This document shows positions 4,048 to 50,360 of a stretch of DNA of 64,000 bases, in pieces (positions within the stretch are counted from its first letter, which is position 1; every line of letters begins with the position of its first letter). The DNA comes from Heptranchias perlo (taxonomy: Eukaryota): assembly GCF_035084215.1 (NCBI RefSeq), contig NC_090336.1:28954001-29018000 (forward strand), given 5' to 3'. A model generated the notes under the pieces. That model was not told the origin of the DNA. It did no database searches and saw nothing but the letters and a program-made list of their open reading frames with translations. Position numbers and translations under genes: made by a program.

Positions 4048-4182
<135 letters not shown>

Positions 4183-6872: not shown

Positions 6873-6976
6873 ATTTAATTTGGATCCAGAGAGAAAATGC
6901 ACAGACAGCGTGCTGTGGGAGTCCTTGGAAATCGCTCAGCTCAAACATGTGGTGAAAGCATTACCAGGAGGCTTAG
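6873..6976 (+). CDS. ABCC8: Sulfonylurea receptor exon ([34 protein letters not shown])
   Basis: ttccgtag acceptor, gtaac donor, 104 bp, phase-compatible with flanking exons. ERKC and VVKALP are SUR1-like. Confidence 0.9.
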
Positions 6977-9197: not shown

Positions 9198-10362
9198 ATG
9201 GCTGCATTCATCAGTACATCCGAGGAGGAGGAACATCACCATCCTCTCCAGGCACGGCGTGCACTTCTGCCACTTGTAGCTCCACAACACAGTGCTGCAC
9301 CACAGGCACCTGCACAAGAGTACAGAGGACAACAACAGAGGGACCGATATCACAGGAGGCACTACCCTCGTCAGAGGGTCTACAGACCGAAGCTCAGCTT
9401 CCTACACATCTCTGAGGAGCAGTACATTGGAGGCTGAGAGTGAGTCGCCAGGTGGTCGCAGACATCTGCAGCCTCCTTCATGCAGAGCTGCTCCCAGCTG
9501 GGCCTGGCAGCATCTCATTGCCCATCGCAATTAAAGTGACCACTGCCTCCAGATCATTCCACAATGCCACCGGTGACATCGCCTGCACACAAGTGCATAA
9601 AGCAGGTCACCGACATCTTGTTTCGCAGAGCCTCGCAATACGTAAACTTCCCCATGGATGACCCCAGCCAGACGGAGAGGACAGTGGGATTCCACTCTGT
9701 GGCTGGTTTCCCACGTATACAGGGTGCAATCGATTGCACCCATATAGCAATCCAAGCACCTCTACACGAGCCAGGACTGTTCATCAACAGAAAGGGGTAT
9801 CACTCCATCAACACTCAGCTTGTTTGTGACCGCTGCAAAAGATTTCTTCTCGTGTGCGCCAGATTCCCTGGCAGCTGCCATGATTCGTTCATTCTGAGGG
9901 AATCCAACATCCCGGCCCTCTTCCATGCACCAGACACCCTTAAGGGCTGGCTCCTCGGGGACAAGGGATACCCCCTGCACACGGGGCTCATGACACCTCT
10001 GAGGAACCCCATCAGCGAGCAACAGCTTCAATTCAACGACAGCCACATCGCCACCAGGTCTATAATTGAACATGCGATAGGACTGCTGAAGATGCGATTT
10101 TGGTGCCTCGATCGTTCTGGGGGAGCGCTTCAATACGTACCAGCGAGAGTGGGTCACATTATAGTACTGTGTTGTGCCCTGCACAACATGGCGCAACAGA
10201 GAGGGGTACCGGTTGAGGAGGCCTCATCCACCATCCACATCAGCCATCCACATTGAGGAGGAGCAGGAGCAGGAGGAGGACGACGAACACATGGGCAGAG
10301 CAGCAGCTCACCTGGCTGCTCGTGAGGCCAGGGAGTCACTCGCATGTGAACGGTTCGCGTAA
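9198..10362 (+). pseudogene. Harbinger (HARBI1-like) DDE transposase, frameshifted
   Basis: ORF 9564..10256 keeps GAIDCTH, LLGDKGY and RSIIEHAIGLLKMRF. The N-terminal part is split over other frames. Confidence 0.9.
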
Positions 10363-14162: not shown

Positions 14163-14691
14163 ATTAACTCAGCAATCAAACCCCTCAACAGTCATTTTAG
14201 TAAACACATCGTGCCGTGTGCTGTTCTGGGCCTTATGAAGGAAAAAAGTTTACGGTCTGGTTCCTGGTGTGTGCTGTTAGTTAATCCTAACAAGGGGTGC
14301 AAAAGTAATGGGGCCATCACAGTCAGTTTCTGTGTCACCATATTAAGATGTAGGAAGAAAACCCATCCAAGGTCCCTGTTCCTAACTGCCAAGCAACTGT
14401 GCCTGCTGGAAGTGCCTATATCTGGACATCAAGTGAAGAAAGGATCGTGTTTCACTATGAAGGCTAAGTAACAATGTTATCATCACGTTTGCTGTTGAGA
14501 ATCAGAGAGAAAGGCATAGAATGATGTGGGAGTACATCTTATGCAATTATGTTTCTAGGTGCTGAGGAATAAGGGGTGAAATATTTGTCAATAAGATGCA
14601 TTATTTTTATTTTACTTGAAGAGATTCTGAGGGGAAAATGCTTTTCTTAAATCATGTGGCTTAATTTGAATAGACTCAGAAAGAACTCTTT

Positions 14692-15310
14692 GGGCTGAAA
14701 ATCTAGCAGGAGTTCAGTGGAAGGGCTGCAAATTAGGCGGGGACCCAGATATACTAGGTCCTGGCCCTCCCCAATAGTATTTGTATGGCCTTGTTGAGGA
14801 CAGAGTATCTGCCTGCCTCAAACAAGGCCTGCGGCATAAGTGAGGGCGTGACTGAAAGTGAGGACTTCCAGACCAGGAGTTCCTGTATCCCTAGCCTGAC
14901 AGAGCACCTAGGGGCCAGTATACTAGGGTTCCAGCCCATCCAATGACGCAAGTGAAGCTCCACCTTGAGGTCCAGTCCTGCATCATGACCTAGGTCCCCA
15001 AAGAATCTGAAAATTTTAGGCAAATTTCTTGGCCACCTTTAAAAGGGGGCTGATGGCTACAGGGAGAGCATCTTTCCAAAGGGAACGCCAGCACCCCCCC
15101 CCACAACCTCGGATCCTGACTTGAACCCTAGGTCACCATTTCCCGTCAGTTTTCTATGGCAGGTTCTTGAGATGCACCCCTAGTGCTGCAGACTTTTGCC
15201 TCCATTATTTAAATTAAGTGACCTCCCCCTGACCCCACACACTTTGGCAGGGTCAGTGTTGGTAGTCACAGGTGGGCGCATTCCGACACTTAGGTCAGAT
15301 TATCAGGCCC
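14692..15310. mobile_element. Possible Harbinger-type MITE
   Basis: Ends GGGCTGAAAATCT / AGATTATCAGGCCC, flanked by TTT on both sides; no coding capacity. Confidence 0.45.
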
Positions 15311-15354
15311 TTTGTATTTGGTCCATCAAAGTAATCTCAGTTCTAAAACATTAA

Positions 15355-15777
<423 letters not shown>

Positions 15778-15924
15778 TGAAAGGTATTTTAGGCCTGGAA
15801 ATTCCAACAGGTTCTCCCAGTCTCCAACCATCACTTCAGCGGGAGACCAGCAAAACCCCAGACTTATGGCGTAAGGAGGCCAATTAGTTTAACATCTGTG
15901 GTAGGAAAATTTAGTGTCTTTAAT

Positions 15925-16750
15925 TAAGGATGATATTACCACGTATCTAGATAAAGAGAAAATAGTTAGATGTAATCAGTACAGATTTCAAAAGGGACGA
16001 TTGTGCTTAAAAATCCTCATAGAATTTTTGAGGGGTTTACAGGCATGGTAGATGGGGCAATTGCAGTTGATGTAGAGTGCCTTTGACAAGGTACCACATG
16101 GGAGATTATTAGAGAAGATTAGGGGATATGGAATTAGGGCAAGGATAGCAAACTAGGTTAAAAATTGTTTAAAAGGGAAAAAATAGAGAGTAGGAGTTGA
16201 AGGCAGTTTTTCAGAGTGGTTGGAAGTGGTTAACGGTGTCCCCCCACAGGGTTCTATTCACTGACTGTATCAATTATTTGGATTTAGGCCTAGAGGGAGT
16301 GGCGTTGAAATTTGTAGATGATTACAAAATTGGAGGTATAGTTAATTATTTAGAAGGCCAAAGGAAGCTGCAAAGGGATATTGTTAAGATGGGGGAGTGG
16401 AATAAGAAGTGGCAGATGGAATTCCATACCATGTGAGGTGATATATTTTGGTAAAAGAAAATAACAGAAATTATACTCTGGATGAACGTATGCTCAGTGC
16501 TATGGAAGAGCACCAGGTTCACAGGACATTAAAAGGCAGCACCTCAGCTTGATAAGGCTATGAAAAAAAGCTAATAAAATTCTAGGTTTTATCTCAAGAG
16601 GTATAGTATATAAAAGCCAACAGGTAATGATGAGCCGATATAAAATCTTAATAAAACCTCAAGAGTACTGAGTGCAATTTTGGGCTCCACACTATGGAAA
16701 GGATATGGAGGCTTCAGAAGGGGTACAGCATAGATTCACTAGGATGTGGT
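15925..16750 (+). mobile_element. Old degenerate CR1 RT fragment
   Basis: Remnants of AFDKVPH, KFVDDYKIGG and KWQMEF, with many stops and indels. Confidence 0.8.
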
Positions 16751-18263
16751 CAATGTTGTCTGCAGGTTAGATTCCAGCAACTTAGTGAACAAGCGTAGCT
16801 TGCAAAAACAATTGTCTTCAGATATTTCCAGGTAGATGTGTATGGTTGAGTCTACTCAACTGCATGGGTAACGACAGGTGCATACAATTCACCTCTGACA
16901 CAAATGAATCTGCTTCGCATCCCTCCTTTAATCTTCTTCCACCTCCAAAAAACTCAACCACAGAGGAACATCCATTGTAATTCCTATATTCAGAAGTTAG
17001 ATTGTAGCAATCCAATATGCAGCTTTAAGTGTTCACTTACTGAAAGGCCATAACATTATTGGCCTTCATCACACATTTTATGTAGGTGAGCGGAGCACAC
17101 AATGCATTCCCAGTGAAAAGATTGGGTAATCCCATGACAACTCATTTCATTACCATGAAAGTTAAATGACACCCTCACACATTTTGCAGTATATCTGAAT
17201 TTCCGAATACCAATTTCACCCCCAATGTGATCGACATAAAGATACGGGTAATTAATGTCGAAGTACATGCCGGTCAGTACAGTTGGCATGGAGGCAGGAG
17301 GGTAAACTCCTGTACCAGGCTGGAAACAAAGAGATTGTCATATGAAGAATCTTAACAGTCTGCACCAATTTTTTCCTGTCAGTAGGACCTCCTTCTATTC
17401 CTCACTTGCCCTACAAGAACCTCCACAGCTGTATCGGAGAATTGGGGGCCCTGGATGACATTATGCCACATGCTACCTCATTAATATGATCTCCACTGAG
17501 CACCACTGAAAAGTGGAGTTTTGCTTTAAGGACTGCAGGCTACGAATAAGTGGCAGGAGGCCTGCTGGATTTCACACCCTCCCAAAGGACAAGCCATTAT
17601 AAGAAGCTATTTAGTGCTAGCGGCTCACCTGTTGTATTTAAATAGTCCAACCACAAAAATTGATCATGTCTCCCATCTACATCATTGGATGGGCAGAACG
17701 AATGACCCACCCACCCAATGTACATATACGAAAAATCTTCCCTACACATGTACTTCTCCACTGATGCTCTATCGTACCTAGACAGCCCAGGAAGATAAAA
17801 ACCTGGACACATTTAATATAGTATTACTTCCGTGGAGAAAATGGGTGGGAGTGGCTTGATTCATTGTTGGGGAATGTGTTCATTTTTGTGACCTGTATTG
17901 TATTATTTACCTTGTTAAATGTGCATCAAGCGGAGTCTTGGGCTGTATTTTTCATGGCAAATGTCAGAGGAAAGTAGTTTCCCTTTGCATCAATGCCAAT
18001 ATGTTGAGGTGTAAATCTGGAGTCAAAACCTGACCTGAAGCAAAGTGAGCTATCCTTCTCCAATGGGTCTCACTTAGCTTAGACTGGAGTCAGATTGGGT
18101 ATAAAAACAACCTTAGAAAGCAAGGTTGAAATGGTACAGTATGTAATGCACGGTAAAAGTATAGAACTGTAATGAAGGGAAGAGGGGTTCTGTAGTTATT
18201 AGTATGTGTTGGTATGTAGAATTTGTTGGAAAAGGAACTAATATTGATTATTATCTTTCATAG

Positions 18264-18326
18264 GAAAATATTTTACAGAAAGTTGTGATGACAGCCTTTG
18301 CGGATCGGACAGTGGTGACCATCGCT
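18264..18326 (+). CDS. ABCC8: Sulfonylurea receptor penultimate exon (ENILQKVVMTAFADRTVVTIA)
   Basis: tttcatag acceptor, gtaagt donor, 63 bp; peptide matches mammalian SUR1/SUR2. Confidence 0.92.
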
Positions 18327-18477
18327 GTAAGTATTAACTGTTTTCAATAGACTTGGAATGGTAACGGGGTACAGGTTCTTGGGTTTTATTGATTGTAGAT
18401 GAAGCAGGGCAGTATTTTCAATAGGAAAAAAGGTTTTTTTTTTCCCAGGGAATTTGAGTTGCACAGGACATTGAATT

Positions 18478-18904
18478 GTTCATTAATGAGGCCTTCACTG
18501 ACAAGGCCGACATTTATAGCCCATCCCTAGTTACCTTGAAAAAGTGGTGGTGGGCCGCCTTCTTGAACCGTTGGTAGTGATTTGATACAACTGCCGCTTT
18601 AGAAGGCAGTTAAGAGTCAACCACACTGGTGTGGGACTGGAGTCACGTATAGGCCAGACCAGGTAAGGACAGCAGGTTTCCTTCCCTGAAGGACAATAGT
18701 GAACCAGTTAGATTTTTACAAGAGTCGACAGCTTCATGGTCACTTTTACTGATACCAGCCTTTTATTTCCCAGATTTTGTTTTTTCAAAACTGAATTCAA
18801 ATTCTCAAACTGCCATGGGGGCATTTGAAATCACATTCCATGAATTATTAGTCCAGACCTCTGGAATACCAGGCCAATAACATAATCACTACACCACCAT
18901 ACCC
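18478..18904 (-). mobile_element. tRNA-headed SINE (resembles the shark DeuSINE/SacSINE1 type)
   Basis: The reverse complement is a degenerate A/B-box head plus a body matching 45547-45875 (40-nt exact match agggaaggaaacctgctgtccttacctggtctggcctata) plus a tail matching the LINE 3' end at 28844-28920. Family name recalled, not searched. Confidence 0.85.
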
Positions 18905-18999
18905 ATAACATCAGGATAAATTGTATTGGTGTATTTGAGATAGGCAGTCATGTATAATAAGGGGGTGAGCAAAAAGTTGGATTTTTTCTAATTAATCGG

Positions 19000-19651
19000 G
19001 CCTGTAACCAATCTTCCATGGTGGAAACCAGGCGCTGTGGCATTTAAAATGGACCAGGGGATTTACCCATTAGTTCATGGCAACTGCAATTTTAAATTAC
19101 GGGCAGCAAGGACACCCACTCCAAACCGGTGGGGTCCTCTTTAAATATGCAGATCAGGCTTCATTGACATCACCGGGCCCAATCTGCTATTTTAACCCAA
19201 GGCCTGAGAGGGTGAGCAGTGGTGACTTCCCCGCCAGGCAAGACATGTCGGCAACAGCAGCCAGGGTCAGAAGAAGCCCATTAAGGTGAGTTTTAAAAAT
19301 ATTTTTACAGGTTTCCTTGTGGGCCAGGAAGAGCAAGAGTGCTCCTAAGGGCCCCACTAGGAAACCTTGGGCCTTTTCTGCCCTGAGCTTCCTCGTACCC
19401 CCAACCAGCATTCCCCTACTTATCTTGTGCCAGGGACAGTTCTCCTGGGTACCCGGTAGTGGCCTCCTACCCATTTTTAACAGCCAGACAGCTGTTTCCC
19501 ACCAACTTCCCAGCCCTTTTGATCAAGAAGTCGGCGAAAGGCATGCTAGTGAGGCCAGGCTGTTAAAATCTACCAAGCCTGACTCTGCCAATTCCAGACG
19601 GGTATGCTGCTCACTTTGTTGTGTTCCCGCCCAGGAGTTAAAATCGAGCCC
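19000..19651. mobile_element. Harbinger-type MITE remnant (right TIR only)
   Basis: Ends in TTAAAATCGAGCCC, matching the Harbinger TIRs in this window; left end not identified. Confidence 0.4.
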
Positions 19652-20476
19652 CATGTTTATGGCAGATCTTAGTGTCCTGCAGCAGCACAGTAGAAGAGAA
19701 TGGTGGAATGTTTTGGGGGAGGTAGGTAGGGATGGTTTGTAACTGGTGTCATGCAACCTTTAGAGAAAAGGAAGTTTAGAAAGAGAGAAAAAAACTAAGA
19801 CGGAATCATCTGATTACTGAGAATGCACAGTCAATCTGGCAGGAGGGGAAGCTTAACTGTTTGGGGTGAGATCTGTCATGAGAACGGTGGATTGGGGTTT
19901 GGGTCTTTTTTTTTTACAGGGGGTTGAAAATTTGATTGTGGTGCACTAAATGCTGATGGCGTTTCAGTGCAGTGATGTGTACTGAGAAGGTACGTCAAAT
20001 GCATATAGGAGTTGGGTCACAAGAGGCAGGTCTGTCATAGAGATTCAGGATGGCGCATGATTGGAAGGTTTGGAAATACTGCTAAGATCTAACTGAATAT
20101 CGGAACAAGCTCGAGGGGTTGAATGGCCTACTCCTGTTCCTATATTCCTGTGTGACAGGAGTATTTGAGTAACGGTTGAGCCATTTTTTGGTTTGTAGAG
20201 GTGACTGTTGGTTAAAATGGAGTTTGAGGATTAGAAAAGGAAAGCCAGTGATGAATGTAATAAATGGGATAAATTAAATTTGGAATGGTACAGCATTCTG
20301 TGACATGGTATTTTATGATGATGACAGTGAGACGGGCAATTCAATCCATGCAATGGCAACAATGTATTGTGAGCTATTAAGGCAGTAGATATTATGGAAG
20401 CTTTGTTATGACTTTTGGCTCATCTCAGGTTTGTGTGAACCTGTATGAAAAATGTTTCCCCCCTTTTCCTTTGTAG

Positions 20477-20611
20477 CACCGGGTTTCGTTAATTCTGGAT
20501 GCGGATCAGATCATTGTCCTGACAGAGGGCACAGTGGCAGAAAACGATTCAGTATCCAATTTACTGAGCAAGGACAGCATATTTGCCTTTTTAGTGAAGT
20601 CCAATGAGTAG
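20477..20611 (+). CDS. ABCC8: Alternative terminal exon A, SUR2A-like (HRVSLILDADQIIVLTEGTVAENDSVSNLLSKDSIFAFLVKSNE*)
   Basis: Strong acceptor (ccccttttcctttgtag), phase 0, open for 44 codons then TAG. Aligns with the SUR2A C-terminus (HRVSSI...EG...NLL...LV..N). Confidence 0.82.
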   Translation, partial: HRVSLILDADQIIVLTEGTVAENDSVSNLLSKDSIFAFLVKSNE

Positions 20612-20811
20612 AGACGGTCACAAAGATGGCCTGTTGGGTTTGTATGGGAATGGCATGTTACCCCTCACATAATTAGAGGAGTATTCTGCTTTCACACTAA
20701 CACAGGCTGTGTTTTATCCTTCAGCGCTGAGTGGCTAACCAAATGTGTCATACTTTTCAACAGTACCTCTATTTGCAATGAATCATGCTAACGTATGTTT
20801 CTGTTCTCTAG

Positions 20812-20949
20812 CATCGGGTGCATACCATTTTGAATGCAGACTTGGTGATTGTGATGAAAAGAGGAATTATCCTGGAATACGACACTCCCAGCATACTCTT
20901 GGATCAAAGGGATGGAACCTTTGCCTCTTTTGTGCGGGCAGATAAATGA
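20812..20949 (+). CDS. ABCC8: Terminal exon B, SUR1/SUR2B-like ([45 protein letters not shown])
   Basis: Branch point gctaac, acceptor ttctctag, ends FASFVRADK* as SUR1 does. Confidence 0.92.
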
Positions 20950-21003
20950 TACATAGCAATAGTTGAATTCTGGAATTGCTTTTGTAATTTCATTTGATCT
21001 GTA

Positions 21004-21009
21004 AATAAA
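21004..21009 (+). terminator. Candidate polyadenylation signal of the SUR gene (a second AATAAA is at 21604-21609)
   Basis: AATAAA ~55 nt after the stop, followed by GT-rich sequence. Confidence 0.5.
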
Positions 21010-21659
21010 ATTGGCACATTTCTTATGGTCGTGTTGCAGTGGGCTATGTTGTCCACCGCCACTACATCAAAATGTTAAAAGTCACACCATACTTCAAACA
21101 GAGTTGATGGCCTAGACAACATACTTTTCACAACCTAATACAAAGGGATTACTACAACAGTTTACACCTAAACTCTACATTAACACAAAACCATTTCAAA
21201 TTTACCATCACTTAAAGGACCTCCATAATGTTCCAAATCAACGTCCTTCTATTGTACACCTAATGCACATAACAGACATTTAACACACCATATAAATGCA
21301 CACAACTGTAATTACCAATTCAGATCAGCAACAGAAAAGTTTCCCAAATTCTACTGTATCTACTCTGTAAACATTCCATCTCACAATACATCAGAAACAC
21401 ACCACCTATAAGTCATTCATTCCATACACAGAAAACTAAAAACCTCTTAAATACATACAACTAACAATTACATATACAGTCACAAAACAGTTTTAATCTG
21501 TTCTCTCTGTTCAAAGTTACTTAGCATTGTTGGCTACTTATATACAAACGAGGTCTTGGTAACAAATAATCTTCACTTCACCAGTGATGTATTGCCACAC
21601 AGCAATAAATAATATATTTATCATACTTTCTTCAGAAACACTGTAGTTCCATTTTAATA

Positions 21660-22719
21660 GAAATTAAGGAAGAGATAGCTGAGGCACCATAACATACATA
21701 TAAAACTTCATTAGAAAAGAGAATAGTGCCAGAGGACTGGTGGACAGCTAATGTGATTCCTATATTTAAAAAGGGAGATCGAAGCAGTCCAGGAAACTAT
21801 AGACCAATTAGCTTAATGTCAGTAGTAGGAAAGATAATGGAATCCTTACTCAAAGACGTAAAAGAAAAACATCTAGAAACTGAATATATTATGAAGAATA
21901 GTCAGTATGGTTTTCAAATGGGAAGGTCATGCATGATCAACCTTATTAAATTCTTTGAAGAAGTAACAAAGAGGGTAGACAAGGGTAATGTAGTGGATGT
22001 AATATATTTGGATTCTCAAAAGACCTTCGATAAGATACTGCATAGTAGACTCAGGACTACGGTCACAGCATGTGAAGTCAGGAGACAAGTAGCAGAATGG
22101 ATAGCAAGCTGACTAGAAAACAGAAAACATAGAGTAGGTGTTAAAGGTAGTTACTCAGACTGGCAAAAGGTGGGAAGTGGTGTTCCACAAGGATTGGTGC
22201 TGGGAGTGCTGTTGTTCACCATTTACATAAACAATTTGGACTCGGAAATCGGAAGTACAATTTCAAAATTTGCAGACTACACCAAATTGGGGGGTATAGT
22301 TAATACCGAGGAGGACTGCGACAAAATACAGGAAGACATTAATAAACTTGCAGAATGGGCATGTAATTGGCAAATGAATTTCAATATAGATAAGTGTGAG
22401 GTATTGCATTTTGGTGGGAAGAATAAGGGGGCCACGTACTACTTGGATAATAAGAGTCTCAATGGAGTAGAGGAGCAGAGGGATCTGGGAAGACAGATAC
22501 TCAAATCACTAAAAGTAGCGATGCAGATTAATAAGGCCTTAAAAAAGCAAACTAAGCAATGCGGTTCATTTCTAGAGTGAAAGAATTGAAAAGCAGAGAA
22601 GTTATGTTAAACTTGTATAGAAGCTTGGTTAGGCCACACTAGTAGCATTGTGCATAGTTCTGGTCACCATATTATAGAAAGTATATTGGAGAGGGTGCAA
22701 AAATGATTTTACTATGATA
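21660..22719 (+). mobile_element. CR1 RT fragment, 5' part; continues at 25425-25890
   Basis: ORFs 21726..22112 and 22170..22580 (PGNYRPISL, GVPQG, KFAD). Confidence 0.88.
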
Positions 22720-30772: not shown

Positions 30773-32230
30773 GTTTCGTTAGATCTGGTGGGATAGTTTT
30801 ATATGTCACCTGTCTATGCGCACATTCAAGTGCTAACTGGCAGCACTAAATTTCAAGACAAAAATAGTCCTCCTGAAAGCCTGCTGCAACCTTAAATTAT
30901 TGAAGTTCTGCTGCTCGTATAACCCACTTTTACATTTCAACGTTAGCCCCACTGCTAAGTGGTTTCTATTTCACAGGGAGCCAAAAGTTGCAGTACAAAT
31001 CGGAATCAGCGGAACCTCCTGACTCCAGAAAAAAGCCCTATGGGAGGCGGTCTTCTCATACCGTTCGTGCATGGACTATCACTTCAATCCTGTCAAACAG
31101 GATTTAAAGAGCGCTGAGGCATTTCTTTCATAAGCTGGAGTTCATTTAAATTGCCGTCCACTCCTCCAAACATTTACATTTTATTTGCCGGGTAGGAAGC
31201 TTCGCGCCTGTTTGTAAACATACAGGCGCAGAACTCTTTCCTAGGCAGGAAAATTGTACTTAAAAGCCCACAGTACAGACATAGTTGGCAGAGCCCGGAC
31301 AGTCCACATCATGTCTATTTACATAATAATGTAACCAACTACCGCATTACTAATCCCTCTGCTGGAACTCGCTCCGAAACAGCGAGGTTCAAAATATCAA
31401 AGGGAGGTGCGGCTGCCCCCTCGGACCCTGAACAACTTGTCCTGCCATTCAAACCCGGTGAACTGCACTGGGGCAGGAGATGGTCCGGCTACAGCTCGTC
31501 CCCTTGGCTACTCGACACCGCCTTGAGCCCCCGCCTGCTCAAGTGGAATTGCGGCATCTCTCCACCAATTCCCGCCCGTCCTTAAGCAGCAGGCTGCGTT
31601 CAACACTAATTATAGTTGAAACATGTTAACAAAAAGTATCCAATTCAAATGACAGATAGGAGGGAACGCTTCTCTTTTTCGACTACCGTGGATCAGAAAT
31701 TAAATTTAATGCACAGGTCAAGCTGTGTATGGGAGAGCAGAGAGGCGACCGCAAACACCACAATATATGTTTATAAACACCCGAGTGAGGTGGGGAGGCG
31801 GCGGTGACTGGGGGACCCGCTCTCCCGCAGGGAGCCCACCCTCCGCAATATCGACTGCACTGAGCCGGGCTGCGAGTCCCCGAGGCGGGTTATTTTATTC
31901 CCAGTCACTCGATGTCCCCACCCCCCTCCTCCTTCATCACCCCCTCCTCCTCCATCCTGCTCCTGCATCACCCCCCTCCTCCTCCTCCTCCTGCATCACC
32001 CCCCTCCTCCTCCTCCAGCACCCCCCCTCCTCCATCATCAGCCGCTCCTATCCGGTTACTGTCATGATTGGCGGCGCCAGCCGGGCTCCTGGAAGCAGCG
32101 ATGTTCCTCCTCCTCCTCCTCCCACACTCCCTCCTCCTCCTCCTCCCACTCTCCCTCCTCCTCCTCCTCCCACTCTCCCTCCTCCCCGGGGCAGCCGAAG
32201 CGCAGAGCGTTCTCCGAGAGCCGGGCGAAG

Positions 32231-32374
32231 GTGAGTCTTAAGCCGCGCTCTTGCTCTCTCTCCTCTCCTCTCTCTTAAACCGGCGGTAAACCCCGCCTGA
32301 CGGGATCCTTTCCCCCCCACTCCCACTCCACTCCCACTCCCACTCTCTCTTTCTCCTCTCCCCCCTGCCCTCAG
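32231..32374 (+). other. Predicted 144-bp 5' UTR intron of the Kir6 gene
   Basis: AAG|GTGAGT donor, CTGAC branch-like motif, long pyrimidine tract, and CAG acceptor 14 nt before the ATG. Confidence 0.7.
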
Positions 32375-32388
32375 GCGATGGGCCGGAG

Positions 32389-33597
32389 ATGTTGGCGAGG
32401 AAAGGCCTCATCCCGGAGGAGTACGTGCTGCGGCTGGTGGAGGACGTGTCGCGGCCCCGCTACAAGGAGCGGCAGCGCAAGGTGCGCTTCGTGGCCAAGA
32501 GCGGCGCCTGCAAGGTGGCCCACACCAACATCCGAGAGCAGGGCCGCTTCCTGCAGGACGTCTTCACCACGCTGGTGGACCTCAAGTGGCGCCACACGCT
32601 GCTCATCTTCACCATGAGCTTCCTGTGCAGCTGGCTGCTCTTCGCCATGATCTGGTGGCTCATCGCCTTCGCCCACGGCGACCTGCACCGGACCGAGCCG
32701 CACTTCGTGCCGTGCATCACCAGCCTGCGCTCCTTCACCTCGGCCTTCCTCTTCTCCATCGAGGTGCAGGTCACCATCGGCTTCGGCGGCCGCATGATCA
32801 CCGAGGAGTGCCCGGCCGCCATCACCGTGCTGATGGCGCAGAACATCGCGGGCCTGCTCATCAACGCCATCATGCTGGGCTGCATCTTCATGAAGACGTC
32901 GCAGGCCCACCGGCGGGCCGAGACGCTCATCTTCAGCAAGCACGCCGTGGTGTCGCCGAGGAACGGCCGCCTGTGCCTCATGTGCCGGGTGGGCGACCTG
33001 CGCAAGAGCATGATCATCGGCGCCAGCATCCGCATGCAGGTGGTGAGGCGGACGGCCACCGCCGAGGGCGAGGTGGTGCCGCTCGATCAGATCGACGTCC
33101 AGATCGACGGCGGCCCGGGGGGGGGAGGAGGAGGAGGCGCCATTTTCTTGGTCTCCCCGCTCATCATCGCCCACGTTATCGACCGGGACAGCCCGCTCTA
33201 CCGGCTGACGGCCGCCGACCTCCAGCGCCAGGACCTGGAGGTGATCGTCATCCTGGAAGGGGTGGTGGAGACGACCGGCATCACCACCCAGGCCCGCACC
33301 TCTTACCTGGCCGACGAGATCCTGTGGGGCCACCGCTTCGTGGCCATCGTGGGCGAGGAGGAGGGCCGCTACTCGGTCGATTACTCCAAGTTCGGCAACA
33401 CCGTCAAGGTGCCCACTCCCCCGCTCGGCGCCCGGCAGCTGGAGCGGGGCCAGCCGCCCGCTTTTTACGAGGAGGAGGACGACGACGAGGGAGGAGGAAG
33501 AAGAGGAGGAGGCGAGAAGGCCGCCACCTTCGACATCTTCCCCACGGGCAGCTCGGTGAGGAGAAGGGCCTCGGCCCCCCAGTCCGACCAAACCTGA
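32389..33597 (+). CDS. KCNJ11: ATP-sensitive inward rectifier K+ channel, Kir6.2-like, 402 aa, intronless CDS
   Basis: Kir6-specific TIGFG filter plus [22 protein letters not shown] and DYSKFGN. Short extracellular loop, no CDS intron and no RRNNS repeats favour KCNJ11 or a KCNJ11-like paralog over KCNJ8. Lies downstream of a SUR gene. Confidence 0.88.
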
Positions 33598-37439: not shown

Positions 37440-39157
37440 ACGTAAATATTTTGTATCTATCTTCACAGTAGAGGACACAAAAAGCATACCAAAATAGTGG
37501 GGAATGAAGGGGTAAATGAGAGTAAGGAACTTAAAATAATTAATATCACTACAGAAAAAGTACTGGACAAACTAATGGGGCTAAAAGCCAACAAATCCCC
37601 TGGACCTGATGGCCTACATCCAGGGGTTCTAAAAGAGGTGGCTGCAGAAATAGTGGATGCATTGGGTGTGATCTTCCAAAATTTTGTAGATTCTGGAATG
37701 GTCCCAGTGGACTGGAAGGTAGCAAATGTTGCCCTGCTATTCAAGAAAGGAGAGAGAGAGAAAACAGGGAACTACAGGCCAGTTAGCCTGATATCAGCAT
37801 TTGGGAAAATGCTGGAATCCATTATTAAGGAAGTAGTAACAGGGCACTTAGAAAATCATAATATGATTAGGCAGAGTCAACATGGTTTTATGAAAGGAAA
37901 ATCGTGTTTGACAAATTTATTAGTTTTTTGAGGATGTAACTAGCAGGGTAGATAAAGGGGAACCAGTGGATGTAGTATATTTGGCTTTTCAAAAGGCATT
38001 CGATAAGGTGCCACATAAAAGGTTGTCACATAAGGTAAGGGCTCATGGGGTTGGGGGTAATATATTAGCATGGATAGAGGATTGGTTAAAGGACAAAAAA
38101 CAGACAGTAGGGATAAACTGGTCATTGTCAGGTTGGCAGGCTGTAACTAGTGGGGTACCGCAAGGATTGGTGCTTGGGCCTCAGCTATTTACAATCTATA
38201 TTAATGACTTAGATAAAGGGACCGAGTGTAATGTATCCACGTTTGCTGACGATACAAAGCTAGGTGGGAAAGTAAGCTGTGAGGAGGACACAAAGAGTCT
38301 GCAAAGGGATATAGACAGGTGGGCAAGAAGGTGGCAGATGGAGTATAATTTGGGGAAATGTAAGGTTATTCACTTTGGTAGGAAGAATAGAAAAACAGAA
38401 TATTTTTTAAATGTTGAGAAACTATTAAATGTTGGTGTTCAGAGAGCGTTGGGTGTCCACGTACAAGAAACACAAAAAGTTAGCATGCACGTACAGCAAG
38501 CAATTAGGAAGGCAAATGGCATGTTGGCCTTTATTGCAAGGGGGTTGGAGTACAAGAGTAAGGAAGTCTTACTACAATTGTACAGGGCTTTGGTGAGACC
38601 TCACCTGGAGTACTGCGTACAGTTTTGGGCTCCTTATCTAAGGAAGGATATACTTGCCTTAAAGGCAGTGCAACAAAGGTTCACTAGATTAATTCCTGGG
38701 ATGAGAGGGTTGTTCTATGAGGAGAGGTTGAGTAGAATGTACTTATACTTTCTGGAGTTTAGAAGAATGAGAGGCCATCTCATTGAAACATATAATATTA
38801 TGAGGGGGCTTGACAGGCTAGATGCTGAGGGGTTGTTTCCCATGGCTGGAGAGTCTAGAACTAGGGGGCATAGTCACAACATAAGGGGTCAGCCATTTAA
38901 GACTGAGATGAGGAGGAATTTCTTTACTCAGAGGGTTGTGAACCTTTGGAATTCTCTACGCCAGAGGGCTGTGGATGCTGAGTCGTTGAATATATTCAAG
39001 GCTAAGATAGGTAGATTTTTGGACTATAGAATCAAGGGATATCGGGATCGGATAGGAAAGTGGAGTTGAGGTCGAAGATCAGCCATGATCTGATTGAATG
39101 GTGGAGCAGCCTCAAGGGGCCCAATGGCCTACCTGTGCTCTATTTCTTATGTTCTTA
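37440..39157 (+). mobile_element. CR1 LINE, 5'-truncated (RT to tail)
   Basis: ORFs 37497..37931 and 37966..39069 (one frameshift apart); tail tttcttatgttctta. Confidence 0.93.
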
Positions 39158-45546: not shown

Positions 45547-48059
45547 GTAGTATAGTGGTTATGTTACTGGACTAGTAATCCAGAAGCCTGGACTAATAAT
45601 CTGGAGTCTATGAGTTCAAATCTCTGCTATAGCAGCTGAGGAATTTAAATTCAATTAATTAAATACAATCTGGAATTTAAAAAACTAGTATCAGTAATGG
45701 TGGCCATGAAGCTACCGGATTGTCGTAAAAACCCATCTGGTTCACTAATGCCCTTTAGGGAAGGAAACCTGCTGTCCTTACCTGGTCTGGCCTATATGTG
45801 ACTCCAGACCACAACAATGTGGTTGATTCTTAATTGCCCTCTGAAATGGCCTAGCAAGCCACTCAGTTGTAAAATCTCGCTTAAGAAAAAGTCAAAATAA
45901 GAATAAAACCGGACGGACCACCCGGCACCGGATACGACAAATGCAAACCAAGCCCAGTTGACCCTGCAAAGTCCTCCTCACTAACATCTGGGGACTTGTG
46001 CCAAAATTGGGAGAGCTGTCCCACAGACAAGTCAAGCAACAGCCTGACATAGCCATACTCACAGAATCATACCTTTCAGCCAACGTCCCAGACTCTTCCA
46101 TCACCATCCCTGGATATGTCCTGTCCCACCGGCAGGACAGACTGACCAGAGGTGGCGGTACAGTGATATACAGTCAGGAGGGAGGGGCCCTGGGAGTCCT
46201 CAACATTGACTCTGGACCCCATGAAATCTCATGGCAATTCTGCTGCTGCTGATGGCCCACAGTGCCTTATGGATGCCCAGTTTTGAGCTGCTAGATCTGT
46301 TCTGAATCTATCCCATTTAACACGGTGATGGTGCCACTCAACACGTTGTGATGGTGTCCTCAGTGCAGACGGGACTTCGTCTCCACGAGGACTGTGCGGT
46401 GGTCACTCCAAGGCATCAGGTCAAATATGGGCAAGGAAACCTCCTGCTGATTACCACCTACTGTCCTCCCTCAGCTGATGAATCAGTCCTCCATGTTGAG
46501 AAGCACTGAGGGTTGCAAGGGCACAGAATGTAGTCTGGGTGGGAGACTTCAATGCCCATCGTCAAGAGTGGCTTGGTAGCACCACTACTGACCAAGCTGG
46601 CCGAGTCCTGAAGAACGTAGCTGCGAGACTGGACCTGCGGCAGGCGAGTGAGCGATCCAACACGAGAGAAAAACCTACTCGACCTCGTCCTCACCAATCT
46701 ACCTGTCGCAAATGCATCTGTCCATGGCAGTATTGGTAGGAGTGACCACCGCACAGTCCTCGTGGAGACGAAGTCCCGTCTTCGCAATGAGGACACCATC
46801 CAACGTGTTGTGTGGCACTATCACCGTGCTAAATGGGATAGATTCAGAACAGATCTAGCAGCTCAAAACTGGGCATCCATGAGGCATTGTGGGCCATCAG
46901 CAGCAGCAGAATTGTATTCCAGCACAATCTGTAACGTCATGGCCCAGCATATTCTTCACTCTACCATTACCAACAAGCCAGGGGATCAACCCTGGTTCAA
47001 TGAGGAGTGTAGAAGAGCATGCCAGGAGCAGCACCAGGTGTACCTAAAAATGAGGTGCCAACTTGGTGAAGATACAACTCAGGACTACATGCATGGTAAA
47101 CAGCGGAAGCAACATGCTATCGACAGAGCTAAGCGATTCCACAACCAACGGATCAGATCAAAGTTCTGCAGTCCTGCCACATCCAGTCGTGAATGGTGGT
47201 GGACAATTAAATAACGGGAGGAGGAGGCTCTATAAACATCCCCATCCTCAATGATGGCGGAGTCCAGCACGTGAGTGCAAAAGACAAGGCTGAGGCGTTT
47301 GCAACCATCTTCAGCCAGAAGTGCCGAGTGGATGATCCATCTCAGCCTCCTCCCGATATCCCCACCATCACAGAAGCCAGTCTTCAGCTAATTCGATTAA
47401 TTCCATGTGATATCAAGGAACAGCTGAGTGCACTGGATACAGCAAAGGCTACTCACCAATAACCTGCTCACCGATGCTCAGTTTGGGTTCCGCCAGGATC
47501 ACTTGGCTCCAGACCTCATTACAGCCTTGGTCCAAACATGGACAAAAGAGCTGAATTCCAGAGATGAGGTGAGAGTGACTGCCCTTGACATCAAGGCAGC
47601 ATTTGACCGAGTGTGGCACCAAGAAGCCCTAGTAAAATTGAAGTCAATGGGAATCAGAGGGAAAACTCTACAGTGGTTGGAATCATACCTAGCACAAAGG
47701 AAGATGGTAGTGGTTGTTGGAGGCTAATCATCTTAACCCCAGGACATTGCTGCAGGAGTTCCTCAGGGCAGTGTCCTCAGCCCAACCATCTTCAGCTGCT
47801 TCATCAATGACCTTCCCTCCATCATAAGATCAGAAATGGGGATGTTCGCTGATGATTGCACAGTGTTCAGTTCAATTTGCAACCCCTTAGATAATGAAGC
47901 AGTTCATGCCCGCGTGCAGCAAGACCTGGACCACATCCAGGCTTGGGCTCATAAGTGGCAAGTAATATTTGCGCCAGACAAGTGCCAGATAATGACCATC
48001 TCCAACAAAAGAGAGACTAACCACCTCCCCTTGACATTCAACAGCATCACCATCACCAT
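45547..48059 (+). mobile_element. 5'-complete copy of the second LINE family: tRNA/SINE-type head followed by a single EN-RT ORF (decayed, 3'-truncated)
   Basis: Head 45547-45875 is homologous to the SINE at 18478-18904. EN starts at KVLLTNIWGL (~45968), with GDFN and SDH. RT motifs DIKAAFD, GVPQGSVL and FADD. Confidence 0.9.
45548..45622 (+). promoter_or_regulatory. RNA polymerase III type-2 internal promoter (A box and B box)
   Basis: A box TAGTATAGTGG (45548-58) and B box GTTCAAATC (45614-22), both matching the consensus with tRNA-like spacing. Confidence 0.7.
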
Positions 48060-48218
48060 CTATCTTGTTATGGTCACTCTACCCTAAAGGACCCCGCACA
48101 ACAAGATTATTAATTAACCCCTTCTCATTCCATCTACAAGGCACATGGAATGAGAAGGGGTTAATTAATAATCTTGTTGTGCGGGGTCCTTTAGGGTAGA
48201 GTGACCATAACAAGATAG
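48060..48218. repeat. Perfect inverted repeat, 74-bp arms, 11-nt spacer
   Basis: 48060-48133 is the exact reverse complement of 48145-48218. Confidence 0.97.
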
Positions 48219-50360
48219 AATTCTTCACTAAGATGGAAACTGAAGTAGTCCAATCCGAAACTAGGGTCCTAAATCTGAACAAAGGAAACTACGATGGTAT
48301 GAGGAGTGAGTTGGCTATGATAGATTGGGGAGCTTCATTAAAAGGCATGACGGTGGATAGGCAATGGCTAACATTTAAGGAACAAATGCATGAATGCAAC
48401 AATTATACATTCCTTTCTGGCGCAAAAACACAAAAGGAAAAGCAGCCCAAACATGGCTAACAAAAGAAATTAAGGATAGTATTAGATCCAAAGAGGAGTC
48501 ATATAAAATTGCCAGAAAAAGTAGCAAGCCTGTGGATTGGGATCAATTTAGAATTCAGCAAAAAAGGACCAAGAGATTGATTAAGAGGGGAAAAATAGAG
48601 TATGAGAGTAAACTTGCAAGGAACATAAAAGTGGACTATAAAAGCTTCTACAAGTATGTAAAAAGAAAAAGATCAGTGAAGACAAATGTAGGTCCCTTAC
48701 CTTCAGAAACTGGAGAATTTATAATGGGGAACAGGGAAATGGCAGAGCAATTAAACAAATACTTTGGTTCTGTCTTCACGGAAGAGGACACAAATAACTT
48801 CCCAGAAATGCTAGAGAACCAAGGATCGAGTGAGAAGGAGGAATTAAAGGAAATTAGTATCAGTAAAAAAAAATAGTGCTGGAGAAATTAATGGGACTGA
48901 AAGCCGATAAATCCCCAGGGCCTGATAATCTGCATCCCAGAGTACTAAAAGAAGTAGCCATGGAAATAGCGGATGCATTGGTTGTCATCTTCCAAAATTC
49001 TATAGATTATGGAACAGTTCCTGCAGATTGGAGGGTGGCAAATGTAACCCCACTATTTAAAAAAAGAGGGAGAGAGAAAACAGGGAACTACAGACCGGTT
49101 AGTGTAACATCAGTAGTAGGGAAAATGCTAGAGTCCATTATAAAGGATGTGATAACAGGACATTTAGAAAATATCAACGGGATTAGACAAAGTCAACATA
49201 GATTGATGAAAGGGAAATCATATTTGACAAACCTACTCGAGTTTTTTGAGGATGTAACTGGTAGAATAAATAAGGGAGAACCAGTGGATGTGGTGTATTT
49301 GGATTTTCAGAAGGCCTTTGATAAAGTCCCACATGAGAGGTTAGTGTGCAAAATTAAAGCACATGGGATTGGGGGTAATATACTGGCATGGATTAAAAAT
49401 TGGTTAATAGACAGGAAACAGAGTCGGAATAAATGGTTCTTTTTCGGGGTGGCAGGCAGTGACTAGTGGCGTACCACAGGGATCAGTGCTTGGGCCCCAG
49501 CTATTCACAATATATATCAATGATTTGGATGAGGGAACCAAATGTAATATTTCCAAGTTTGCTGGGATCGTGAGTTGTGAGGAGGATGCAAAGAGGCTTC
49601 AAGGCGATTTAGACAAGCTGAGTGAGTGGGCAAATACATGGCAGATGCAGTATAACGTGGATAAATGTGAAGTTATCTACTTCGGAAGGAAAAACAGAAA
49701 GGCAGAGTATTAATTAAATGGTGATAGATTGGGGAATGTTGATGTACAAAGGGACCTGGGTGTCCTTGTACACCAGTCACTGAAAGCAAATATGCAGGTG
49801 CAGCAAGCAGTTAGGAAGGCAAATGGTATGTTGGCCTTCATTACAAGAGGATTTGAGAATAGGAGCAAAAATGTTTTACTGCAGTTATACAGGGCCTTGG
49901 TGAGACCACACCTGGAGTATTGTGTGCAGTTTTGGTCTCCTTACCTAAGAAAGGATATACTTGCCATAGAGGGAGTGCAGCGAAGGTTCACCAGACTGAC
50001 TCCTGGGATGGCAGGACTGTCGTATGAGGAGAGATTGGGTCGACTTGGCCTGTATTCACTTGAGTTTAGAAGACTGCGGAGAGATCTCATTGAAACATAT
50101 AAAATTCTGACAGGGCTAGACAGACTGGATGCAGGGAGGATATTTCTCCTGGCTGGGGGATCCAGAATGAGGAGTCACAGTCTCAGGATACGGGGTAGGA
50201 CATTTAGGACTGAGATGAGGAGAAATTTCTTCACTCAGAGGGTGGTGATCCTGTGGAATTCTCTACCACAGAAGGCTGTGGAGGCCAAGTCACTGAATAT
50301 ATTTAAGTAGGAGCTAGATAGATTCCTAGACAAGGGCTATGGGGAGAGAGCGGGAATATG

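Follow-up and report, generated by a model that had tools for sequence, protein, structure and literature searches.

A SUR2A-type end spliced from the ABCC8 gene of the shark Heptranchias perlo and the likely age of the A/B switch

SUR1 regulates the energy-sensing potassium channel familiar above all from insulin-secreting cells. Three human SUR subtypes, namely SUR1, SUR2A and SUR2B, are distinguished in an excerpt of PMC10276813, and exons 38A and 38B of ABCC9 have been described as terminal or last exons (PMC8021106, PMC6773855; both in excerpt). A window of 64,000 nucleotides from the shark Heptranchias perlo, i.e., the whole stretch of DNA analysed here, contains two homologous exons of this kind in a SUR gene beside a Kir6.2-like gene. 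This raises the question of which SUR gene carries the pair and how old the pair is. A previous sequence-only reading had offered two answers: an undescribed "SUR1A" isoform with an exon pair older than the split of ABCC8 and ABCC9, or a third SUR/Kir6 paralogue pair.

The locus and its assignment to ABCC8-KCNJ11

The exons concerned lie on the forward strand of the window. Coding exons of NBD2 at 4073..4181 and 6873..6976 were located by tblastn with GT/AG borders read from the sequence, and a further coding exon with the signature motif and Walker B (15554..15687) is joined to the last common exon of 63 nt (18264..18326) in all four transcript runs of the species (joint 15687>18264). This last common exon provides the donor to A or B. 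Exon A (20477..20637, 161 nt) comprises 44 codons, the stop TAG at 20609-20611 and 26 nt of 3' UTR. Exon B (20812..21009), starting 200 nt after the stop of A, holds 45 codons with the stop TGA at 20947-20949. Both exons are in phase 0 and follow pyrimidine-rich AG acceptors (...CCTTTGTAG ending at 20476 and ...TTCTCTAG ending at 20811, respectively). Exon A encodes a SUR2A-type end with TEGTVAE at residues 16-22, where exon B encodes KRGIILE. The two align with a score of 81, compared with a maximum of 38 for shuffled A (5000 shuffles), and among the 4545 AG-started 44-codon frames of the window exon A is the best open frame after B itself. It is 100% identical to the end of the RefSeq protein XP_067849957.1 (Heptranchias perlo ABCC8 isoform X1), which was placed exon by exon on C12:28774285-28974608. 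Exon A alone, compared with PDB entries, did not single out SUR2A (25.1 bits vs. 25.7 for SUR1, with MRPs higher) and was not used for typing.

A full-length SUR tree of 35 rows, built by a quick method with the last exon omitted, the lamprey outside and no mammalian SUR1 row, places the window gene inside ABCC8 with an SH-aLRT of 100, grouped with other cartilaginous fishes as sister to bony-vertebrate ABCC8 and following the species tree. Likewise, the window SUR reaches 2737-2751 bits to solved (PDB) SUR1 chains vs. 2453 to SUR2. The synteny check suggested by the sequence-only reading revealed harmonin PDZ exons about 30 kb upstream of ABCC8 (C12:28723003-28742679) and the Kir6 gene downstream; in human, USH1C is likewise located next to ABCC8. 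The adjacency of ABCC8 and KCNJ11 is known from the literature. An A/B pair would have been expected in ABCC9, as the reading itself had pointed out. That gene is found on contig C27, where it falls inside ABCC9 (SH-aLRT 100) and adjoins two Kir6.1-like copies, and genome searches with the last exon, the Walker B exon and a TMD0 exon returned no SUR1/2-type gene other than this one and ABCC8. On the basis of the tree, the bit scores, the upstream harmonin exons and the genome searches, the locus is therefore ABCC8-KCNJ11 and not a third SUR/Kir6 pair. Tree position, bit score and neighbouring genes all mark it as the orthologue of mammalian ABCC8 with KCNJ11, which it further resembles in its B-type end of 45 aa ending in ADK and the adjacent single-exon Kir6.2 CDS.

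A third paralogue pair in place of ABCC8/KCNJ11 could draw on a Kir6 gene on contig C43 that equals the window Kir6 (598 bits) in its score to mammalian Kir6.2 (602 bits), and on a distant SUR-like ABCC gene on contig C3. Nevertheless, the nesting of the window gene in ABCC8, the upstream harmonin exons, the lack of another ABCC8 in the assembly and the absence of any SUR match in the 120 kb surrounding the C43 gene render this second answer of the reading scarcely credible.

The KCNJ11 (Kir6.2) CDS at 32389..33597 (+), which encodes 402 aa, is named mainly by its position beside ABCC8, with 597.9 bits to Kir6.2 vs. 554.2 to Kir6.1. The reading had correctly seen a single open frame and had used it as a marker of KCNJ11. 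However, both Kir6.1-like copies on C27 are single open frames too, so the intronless state cannot separate KCNJ11 from KCNJ8 in the shark.

Several further observations concern the surroundings and relatives of these genes. The 5' UTR of the Kir6.2 gene likely contains an intron, with a donor near 32231 and an acceptor near 32374, and an out-of-frame ATG immediately precedes the start (region 32229-32390); in the 33100-33597 part, the cytoplasmic domain includes a run of glycines and the tail is acidic and diverged, and a GAG-rich tandem repeat occurs 3' of the stop. Two exons that encode immunoglobulin C1-set domains (61692-62624, -) are located beyond KCNJ11 in the opposite orientation, and their position agrees with that of NCR3LG1/B7-H6 in human. 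Open frames in introns and between genes (9540-10253, 21693-22577, 37924-39066 and 47428-50307) are transposase-like and LINE reverse-transcriptase-like. The two Kir6.1-like copies beside ABCC9 (C27:8874321-8875574, +, and 8893135-8894391, -) are inverted and 99% identical over 1257 nt, the same for 350 residues with differing C-terminal tails; they may stem from a recent duplication, a conversion or an assembly error. The third Kir6 gene (C43:3526842-3527798, -) is 74-77% identical to the other two and may be an old paralogue. It resembles zebrafish Kir6.3 (kcnj11l), which is likewise a third Kir6 with no SUR beside it and was called unique to zebrafish (PMC5367309). The C3 gene (C3:78955186-79021333, +) was rejected as a SUR1/2 paralogue because its matched pieces are 27-67% identical, its exon borders differ and it has one last exon only; this last exon groups with the outgroup protein P0442, and the gene is possibly an invertebrate-type SUR relative retained in sharks.

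Splicing of exons A and B

Transcript data of Heptranchias perlo comprised contigs of four runs from one study with one sample code, which were placed on positions 14500-22000. They were taken as RNA since exons are joined in them at GT..AG; the depths of the contigs do not permit a ranking of the two forms. Three of the four runs (X1, X2 and X3) contain the joint 18326>20477 into exon A, and the same three contain the joint 20637>20812, by which A is spliced onto B over a GT..AG intron of 174 nt (20638..20811). The donor of exon A, TGG/GTTTGT at 20637/20638, is situated 26 nt past the A stop, and one X1 contig spans both preceding exons, then A, then B into the 3' UTR. The direct joint 18326>20812 is absent among the joints listed and was deduced from the offsets of a contig in a single run (X5); in this run, contig 23 (depth 12) comprises the exon ending at 15687, the 63-nt piece and then 20812. 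Both junctions that the sequence-only reading had asked for were thereby recovered, and the inclusion of A varies among the four runs. No AATAAA or ATTAAA is present between the A stop and exon B. Since A has a donor joined to B and is followed by no polyA hexamer before B, exon A is a stop-bearing cassette spliced onto B and not a terminal exon. The phase-0 pair with its spacing, acceptors and order had been described correctly from the sequence, whereas the term "terminal" for A and the proposed mechanism of alternative last exons did not hold.

With A included, the protein ends in A and B becomes 3' UTR; with A skipped, B is coding. Two homologous, mutually exclusive ends are thus expressed from one donor, the B form being documented in one run. 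Nonsense-mediated decay spares transcripts whose stop lies no more than about 50 nt before the last junction. The A-form mRNA is predicted to be spared because the A stop lies only 26 nt upstream of that junction. The AATAAA at 21004 is likely the main polyA signal of ABCC8; some contigs continue to 21777, and those with a long 3' UTR extend into the transposase/LINE-like frame at about 21700. Among the joints listed for four runs of other organisms, none was a spliced A joint; the A-covering contigs of these runs had intron flanks, and their exon A featured at least four differences, two silent and two replacement.

The A-B intron carries a weak donor (GTTTGT) as well as GCATG at 20653 and ACTAAC at 20696, which we take to be a possible RBFOX and a possible QKI site, respectively. 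The motifs were spotted post hoc; only one of 319 background windows of 100 nt holds both, and similar motifs are absent behind the A exon of ABCC9. A weak A donor together with these putative sites would fit a muscle-biased inclusion of A.

The arrangement is similar to the 38A/38B switch of ABCC9 in that two homologous last coding exons follow the same phase-0 donor in the order A then B, the last 42 residues of NBD2 are swapped, K-R is exchanged with S/T-E at positions 16-17, and an R helix is present. It differs in that the shark switch belongs to ABCC8, A has one residue fewer and is located 174 nt from B, and A is a cassette spliced onto B, unlike the published account of 38A/38B. Mammalian SUR2A mRNA likewise has A as a 176-nt insert; neither this insert nor an exon 39/40 wording was found in the literature searched.

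An A-ending isoform is already contained in automatic RefSeq models of chondrichthyan ABCC8 (e.g., XP_067849957.1, XP_032894884.1, XP_042197260.1) under the designation "ABCC8 isoform Xn". The "undescribed" isoform of the reading is to that extent on record. Nevertheless, these models are predictions to which no name, SUR2A homology, history or function was found attached, and no paper on an A-type SUR1 or on the age of the switch was found in the literature searched, where subscription papers are sparse. The rat "SUR1A2" is reportedly a different variant from the shark SUR1A.

Distribution and age of the exon pair

Of the 20 chondrichthyan species covered, 13 have an A-type ABCC8 model; for three of the seven others, the coverage was of cluster representatives only. 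The 13 are Heptranchias, Pristiophorus, Mustelus, Carcharodon, Cetorhinus, Stegostoma, Hemiscyllium, Narcine, two Mobula, Amblyraja, Leucoraja and the chimaera Callorhinchus. Altogether, 71 chondrichthyan ABCC8 models (11 of them retrieved with an A query) comprise 26 A-ending, 43 B-ending and two incomplete ones. Exon A is spliced in Heptranchias and intact in other sharks, rays and a chimaera, contrary to the case, weighed by the sequence-only reading, of an exon that is never spliced and disrupted in relatives.

Exon A evolves faster than the ABCC8 body, with 30-40 of 44 residues identical to the Heptranchias exon (68-91%) in the nine species compared, vs. 91-95% for the body. This rate would suit a variant that is spliced without retuning the channel, i.e., a neutral or a dosage/3' UTR variant, as would the exon A of Callorhinchus, which starts with Pro where all others have the conserved His. 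Such a variant is nonetheless unlikely, since the frame and stop position of A are kept in all 13 species, S/T-E stands at positions 16-17 as in SUR2A (with D or K at one of them in few species) instead of the K-R of B, and all three Heptranchias ABCC8 models seen use A. The His at the start of exon A is the H-loop histidine of NBD2, and an altered handling of nucleotides would be the expected consequence of its replacement in the chimaera.

In bony vertebrates, none of 181 ABCC8 models is A-type; 171 are B-type, nine end early and one ends otherwise. This set of protein models, retrieved with a B-ending query, covers coelacanth, lungfish, bichirs, sturgeons, gar, bowfin, teleosts, amphibians, reptiles and a bird, and no mammal. 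Conversely, no bony-vertebrate protein named ABCC8 is found among the best 120 of 1757 matches to the A-type end. In coelacanth, lungfish and bichirs, A-type ends occur in 0 of 28 ABCC8 models vs. 17 of 25 ABCC9 models, the ABCC9 control clusters having been seeded with A-ending proteins. At the level of protein models, these counts point to a likely loss of exon A from ABCC8 in bony vertebrates. Some turtle ABCC8 models feature a 21-residue insert directly before exon B, which is unlike exon A.

The shark ABCC9 on C27 has its own A exon 3367 nt upstream of B, which is 55% identical to the A exon of ABCC8 and shows a matching TTGG/GTTGGT 42 nt past the stop as its presumed donor. Designating the exons of ABCC8 and ABCC9 as A8, B8, A9 and B9, mean identities amount to 76% for B8-B9, 55% for A8-A9 and 43% for A-B as well as for A8-B8. 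The consensus contains six columns with A8=A9 vs. B8=B9 and none with A8=B8 vs. A9=B9, and an unrooted exon tree (45 columns) splits A from B with 100/99. After rooting with distant SUR-like proteins and the C3 gene, B8 and B9 are united in a single, long-stemmed clade (100/99), and A8, A9 and the lamprey end remain near the root, with A8+A9 lacking clade support. The AU test included 19 outgroups; from P0426-P0447, an end was retained only if it began with His and was 42-50 residues long. The supposed outgroup P0431, being a teleost ABCC9-B, was removed beforehand, and the partial mole A exon was omitted from both the rooted tree and the test. At the A/B-separating columns S4, S16 and L40, the outgroup majority is A-like.

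These comparisons bear on an independent duplication of the last exon inside chondrichthyan ABCC8 that converged on an A-like sequence. A clade of A8 and B8 is not rejected without outgroups (p-AU 0.109; 45 columns, low power), and a one-residue deletion is private to A8. With outgroups, however, this clade is rejected (p-AU 0.008), and convergence would have to account for the six columns against none and for an A8-B8 identity far below that of B8-B9, besides a reversion to outgroup residues, which makes it highly improbable. Rather, the A-like outgroup ends and the single clade of B exons suggest that A is likely the largely ancestral end and B a derived copy, and that the pair likely arose before ABCC8 and ABCC9 diverged. 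With the gene placed in ABCC8 and A spliced, the first answer of the sequence-only reading is thereby supported. The end encoded by exon A appears homologous to the SUR2A end and not a fresh copy of B, much of the likeness being a shared ancestral state.

Lampreys are reported to possess two SUR genes (PMC4458048, in excerpt). For the first, all seven members of the model cluster have an A-type end, and the second, known from a Japanese lamprey model in a published supplement and translated by eye, has a B-type end. As judged from these models, with one gene ending in A and the other in B, both types existed before the split of jawed and jawless vertebrates. In the ESM Atlas, the only matches to the lamprey end were hypothetical clusters from bacteria.

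Alternatively, ABCC8 might have acquired exon A from ABCC9 in the cartilaginous-fish stem through gene conversion or exon transfer, in which case bony ABCC8 would never have had it. This would agree with the observed restriction of A-type ABCC8 to chondrichthyans, with a grouping of A8 and shark/chimaera A9 that is not rejected (p-AU 0.27) and with a similar donor context past the stop in both genes. Against it, the best rooted tree shows an A9 clade without A8 (99/83) that includes the shark A9, and the identity of A8 and A9 (55%) falls short of the 66% that A9 shows among jawed vertebrates and does not exceed that of A8 and the lamprey end (57%). Moreover, the genes are on separate contigs, the flanking introns are dissimilar (for the intron behind A, 793 of 1000 shuffles aligned as well), and an A-type end is already present in a lamprey SUR. 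Accordingly, a transfer from ABCC9 has a low probability compared with inheritance of the pair from before the gene split.

The R helix and the predicted function of SUR1A

According to excerpts of PMC10276813, the low Mg-ADP response of SUR2A is set by residues 1516-1522 together with the R helix, mammalian SUR1 lacks the R helix, and the SUR2A and SUR2B ends adopt the same fold. The linker of shark SUR1, LERKNLRRAMYSREA, is the same as that of rat SUR2 except for T932 and differs from that of human SUR1. The R-helix residues R930, K931, L933, R934, R935 and Y938 are all conserved, and of their contacts, mapped through mole SUR2, D789, L793 and I806 are conserved and L792 is replaced by I. 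Hence, unlike mammalian SUR1 with only a B-type end and no R helix, shark SUR1 possesses both ends and the R helix. In the region of SUR2A 1516-1522, shark A reads TEGTVAE (consensus SEGTVAE), rat SUR2A SEGILVE and B KRGIILE; three of seven residues of shark A are identical to rat SUR2A, and the charge swap is retained. The R-helix motif is also present in ABCC8 of lamprey, chimaera, ray-finned fish, coelacanth and lungfish. It decays in frog and lizard and less so in salamanders, turtles and a bird, which suggests that the R helix of ABCC8 was eroded in tetrapods.

Considering these features, it is quite probable that shark ABCC8 gives rise to both SUR1A and SUR1B, with SUR1A predicted to be less sensitive to Mg-ADP in the manner of SUR2A and likely present in striated muscle. 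Given that shark SUR1 keeps the SUR2-type R helix, the prediction for SUR1A is that it senses Mg-ADP with a high threshold, as cardiac SUR2A does. With the A end, the exchange of K-R for S/T-E at positions 16-17 would make NBD2 bind Mg-ADP less readily, and the R helix would remain wedged between the NBDs, so that a Kir6.2/SUR1A channel would open under strong metabolic stress only. SUR1B would be the more easily opened form, serving endocrine and neural sensing. In evolutionary terms, the last exon would have been duplicated once before the ABCC8/ABCC9 split, with A staying of the ancestral type and B diverging; in ABCC8, A would then have been lost in bony vertebrates and the R helix eroded in tetrapods.

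The textbook view regards the A/B switch as characteristic of SUR2 and takes SUR1/SUR2B as the norm from which SUR2A deviates. This view is reversed if A, as it appears, is ancestral and B derived; by these data, the switch was likely also a former property of SUR1. An even wider reading, which we hold tentatively and with rather less than even confidence, is that the ancestral vertebrate SUR was "cardiac-type" with an A-type end, an R helix and the A/B switch, that chondrichthyans run SUR1A, SUR1B, SUR2A and SUR2B, and that mammalian islet SUR1 arose via two losses. If this is true, the easily opened, glucose-sensing islet SUR1 would result from the loss of exon A in the bony-vertebrate stem and the loss of the R helix in tetrapods, and Kir6.2/SUR1A from a single locus would be a main heart or muscle channel in cartilaginous fishes.

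The allosteric action of the last 42 residues (C42) is described as still unexplained in an excerpt of PMC10276813. Shark SUR1 would be a natural SUR1 bearing both known brakes of SUR2A, the A-type end and the R helix, and shark, fish, tetrapod and mammal would form a graded series in which the brakes were lost singly. The allosteric action of C42 thus becomes testable on a second backbone, where SUR1A and SUR1B would offer a natural single-gene test of how C42 and the R helix jointly set the Mg-ADP threshold. Beyond this, the finding may have a bearing on low-oxygen handling and glucose sensing in sharks and rays.
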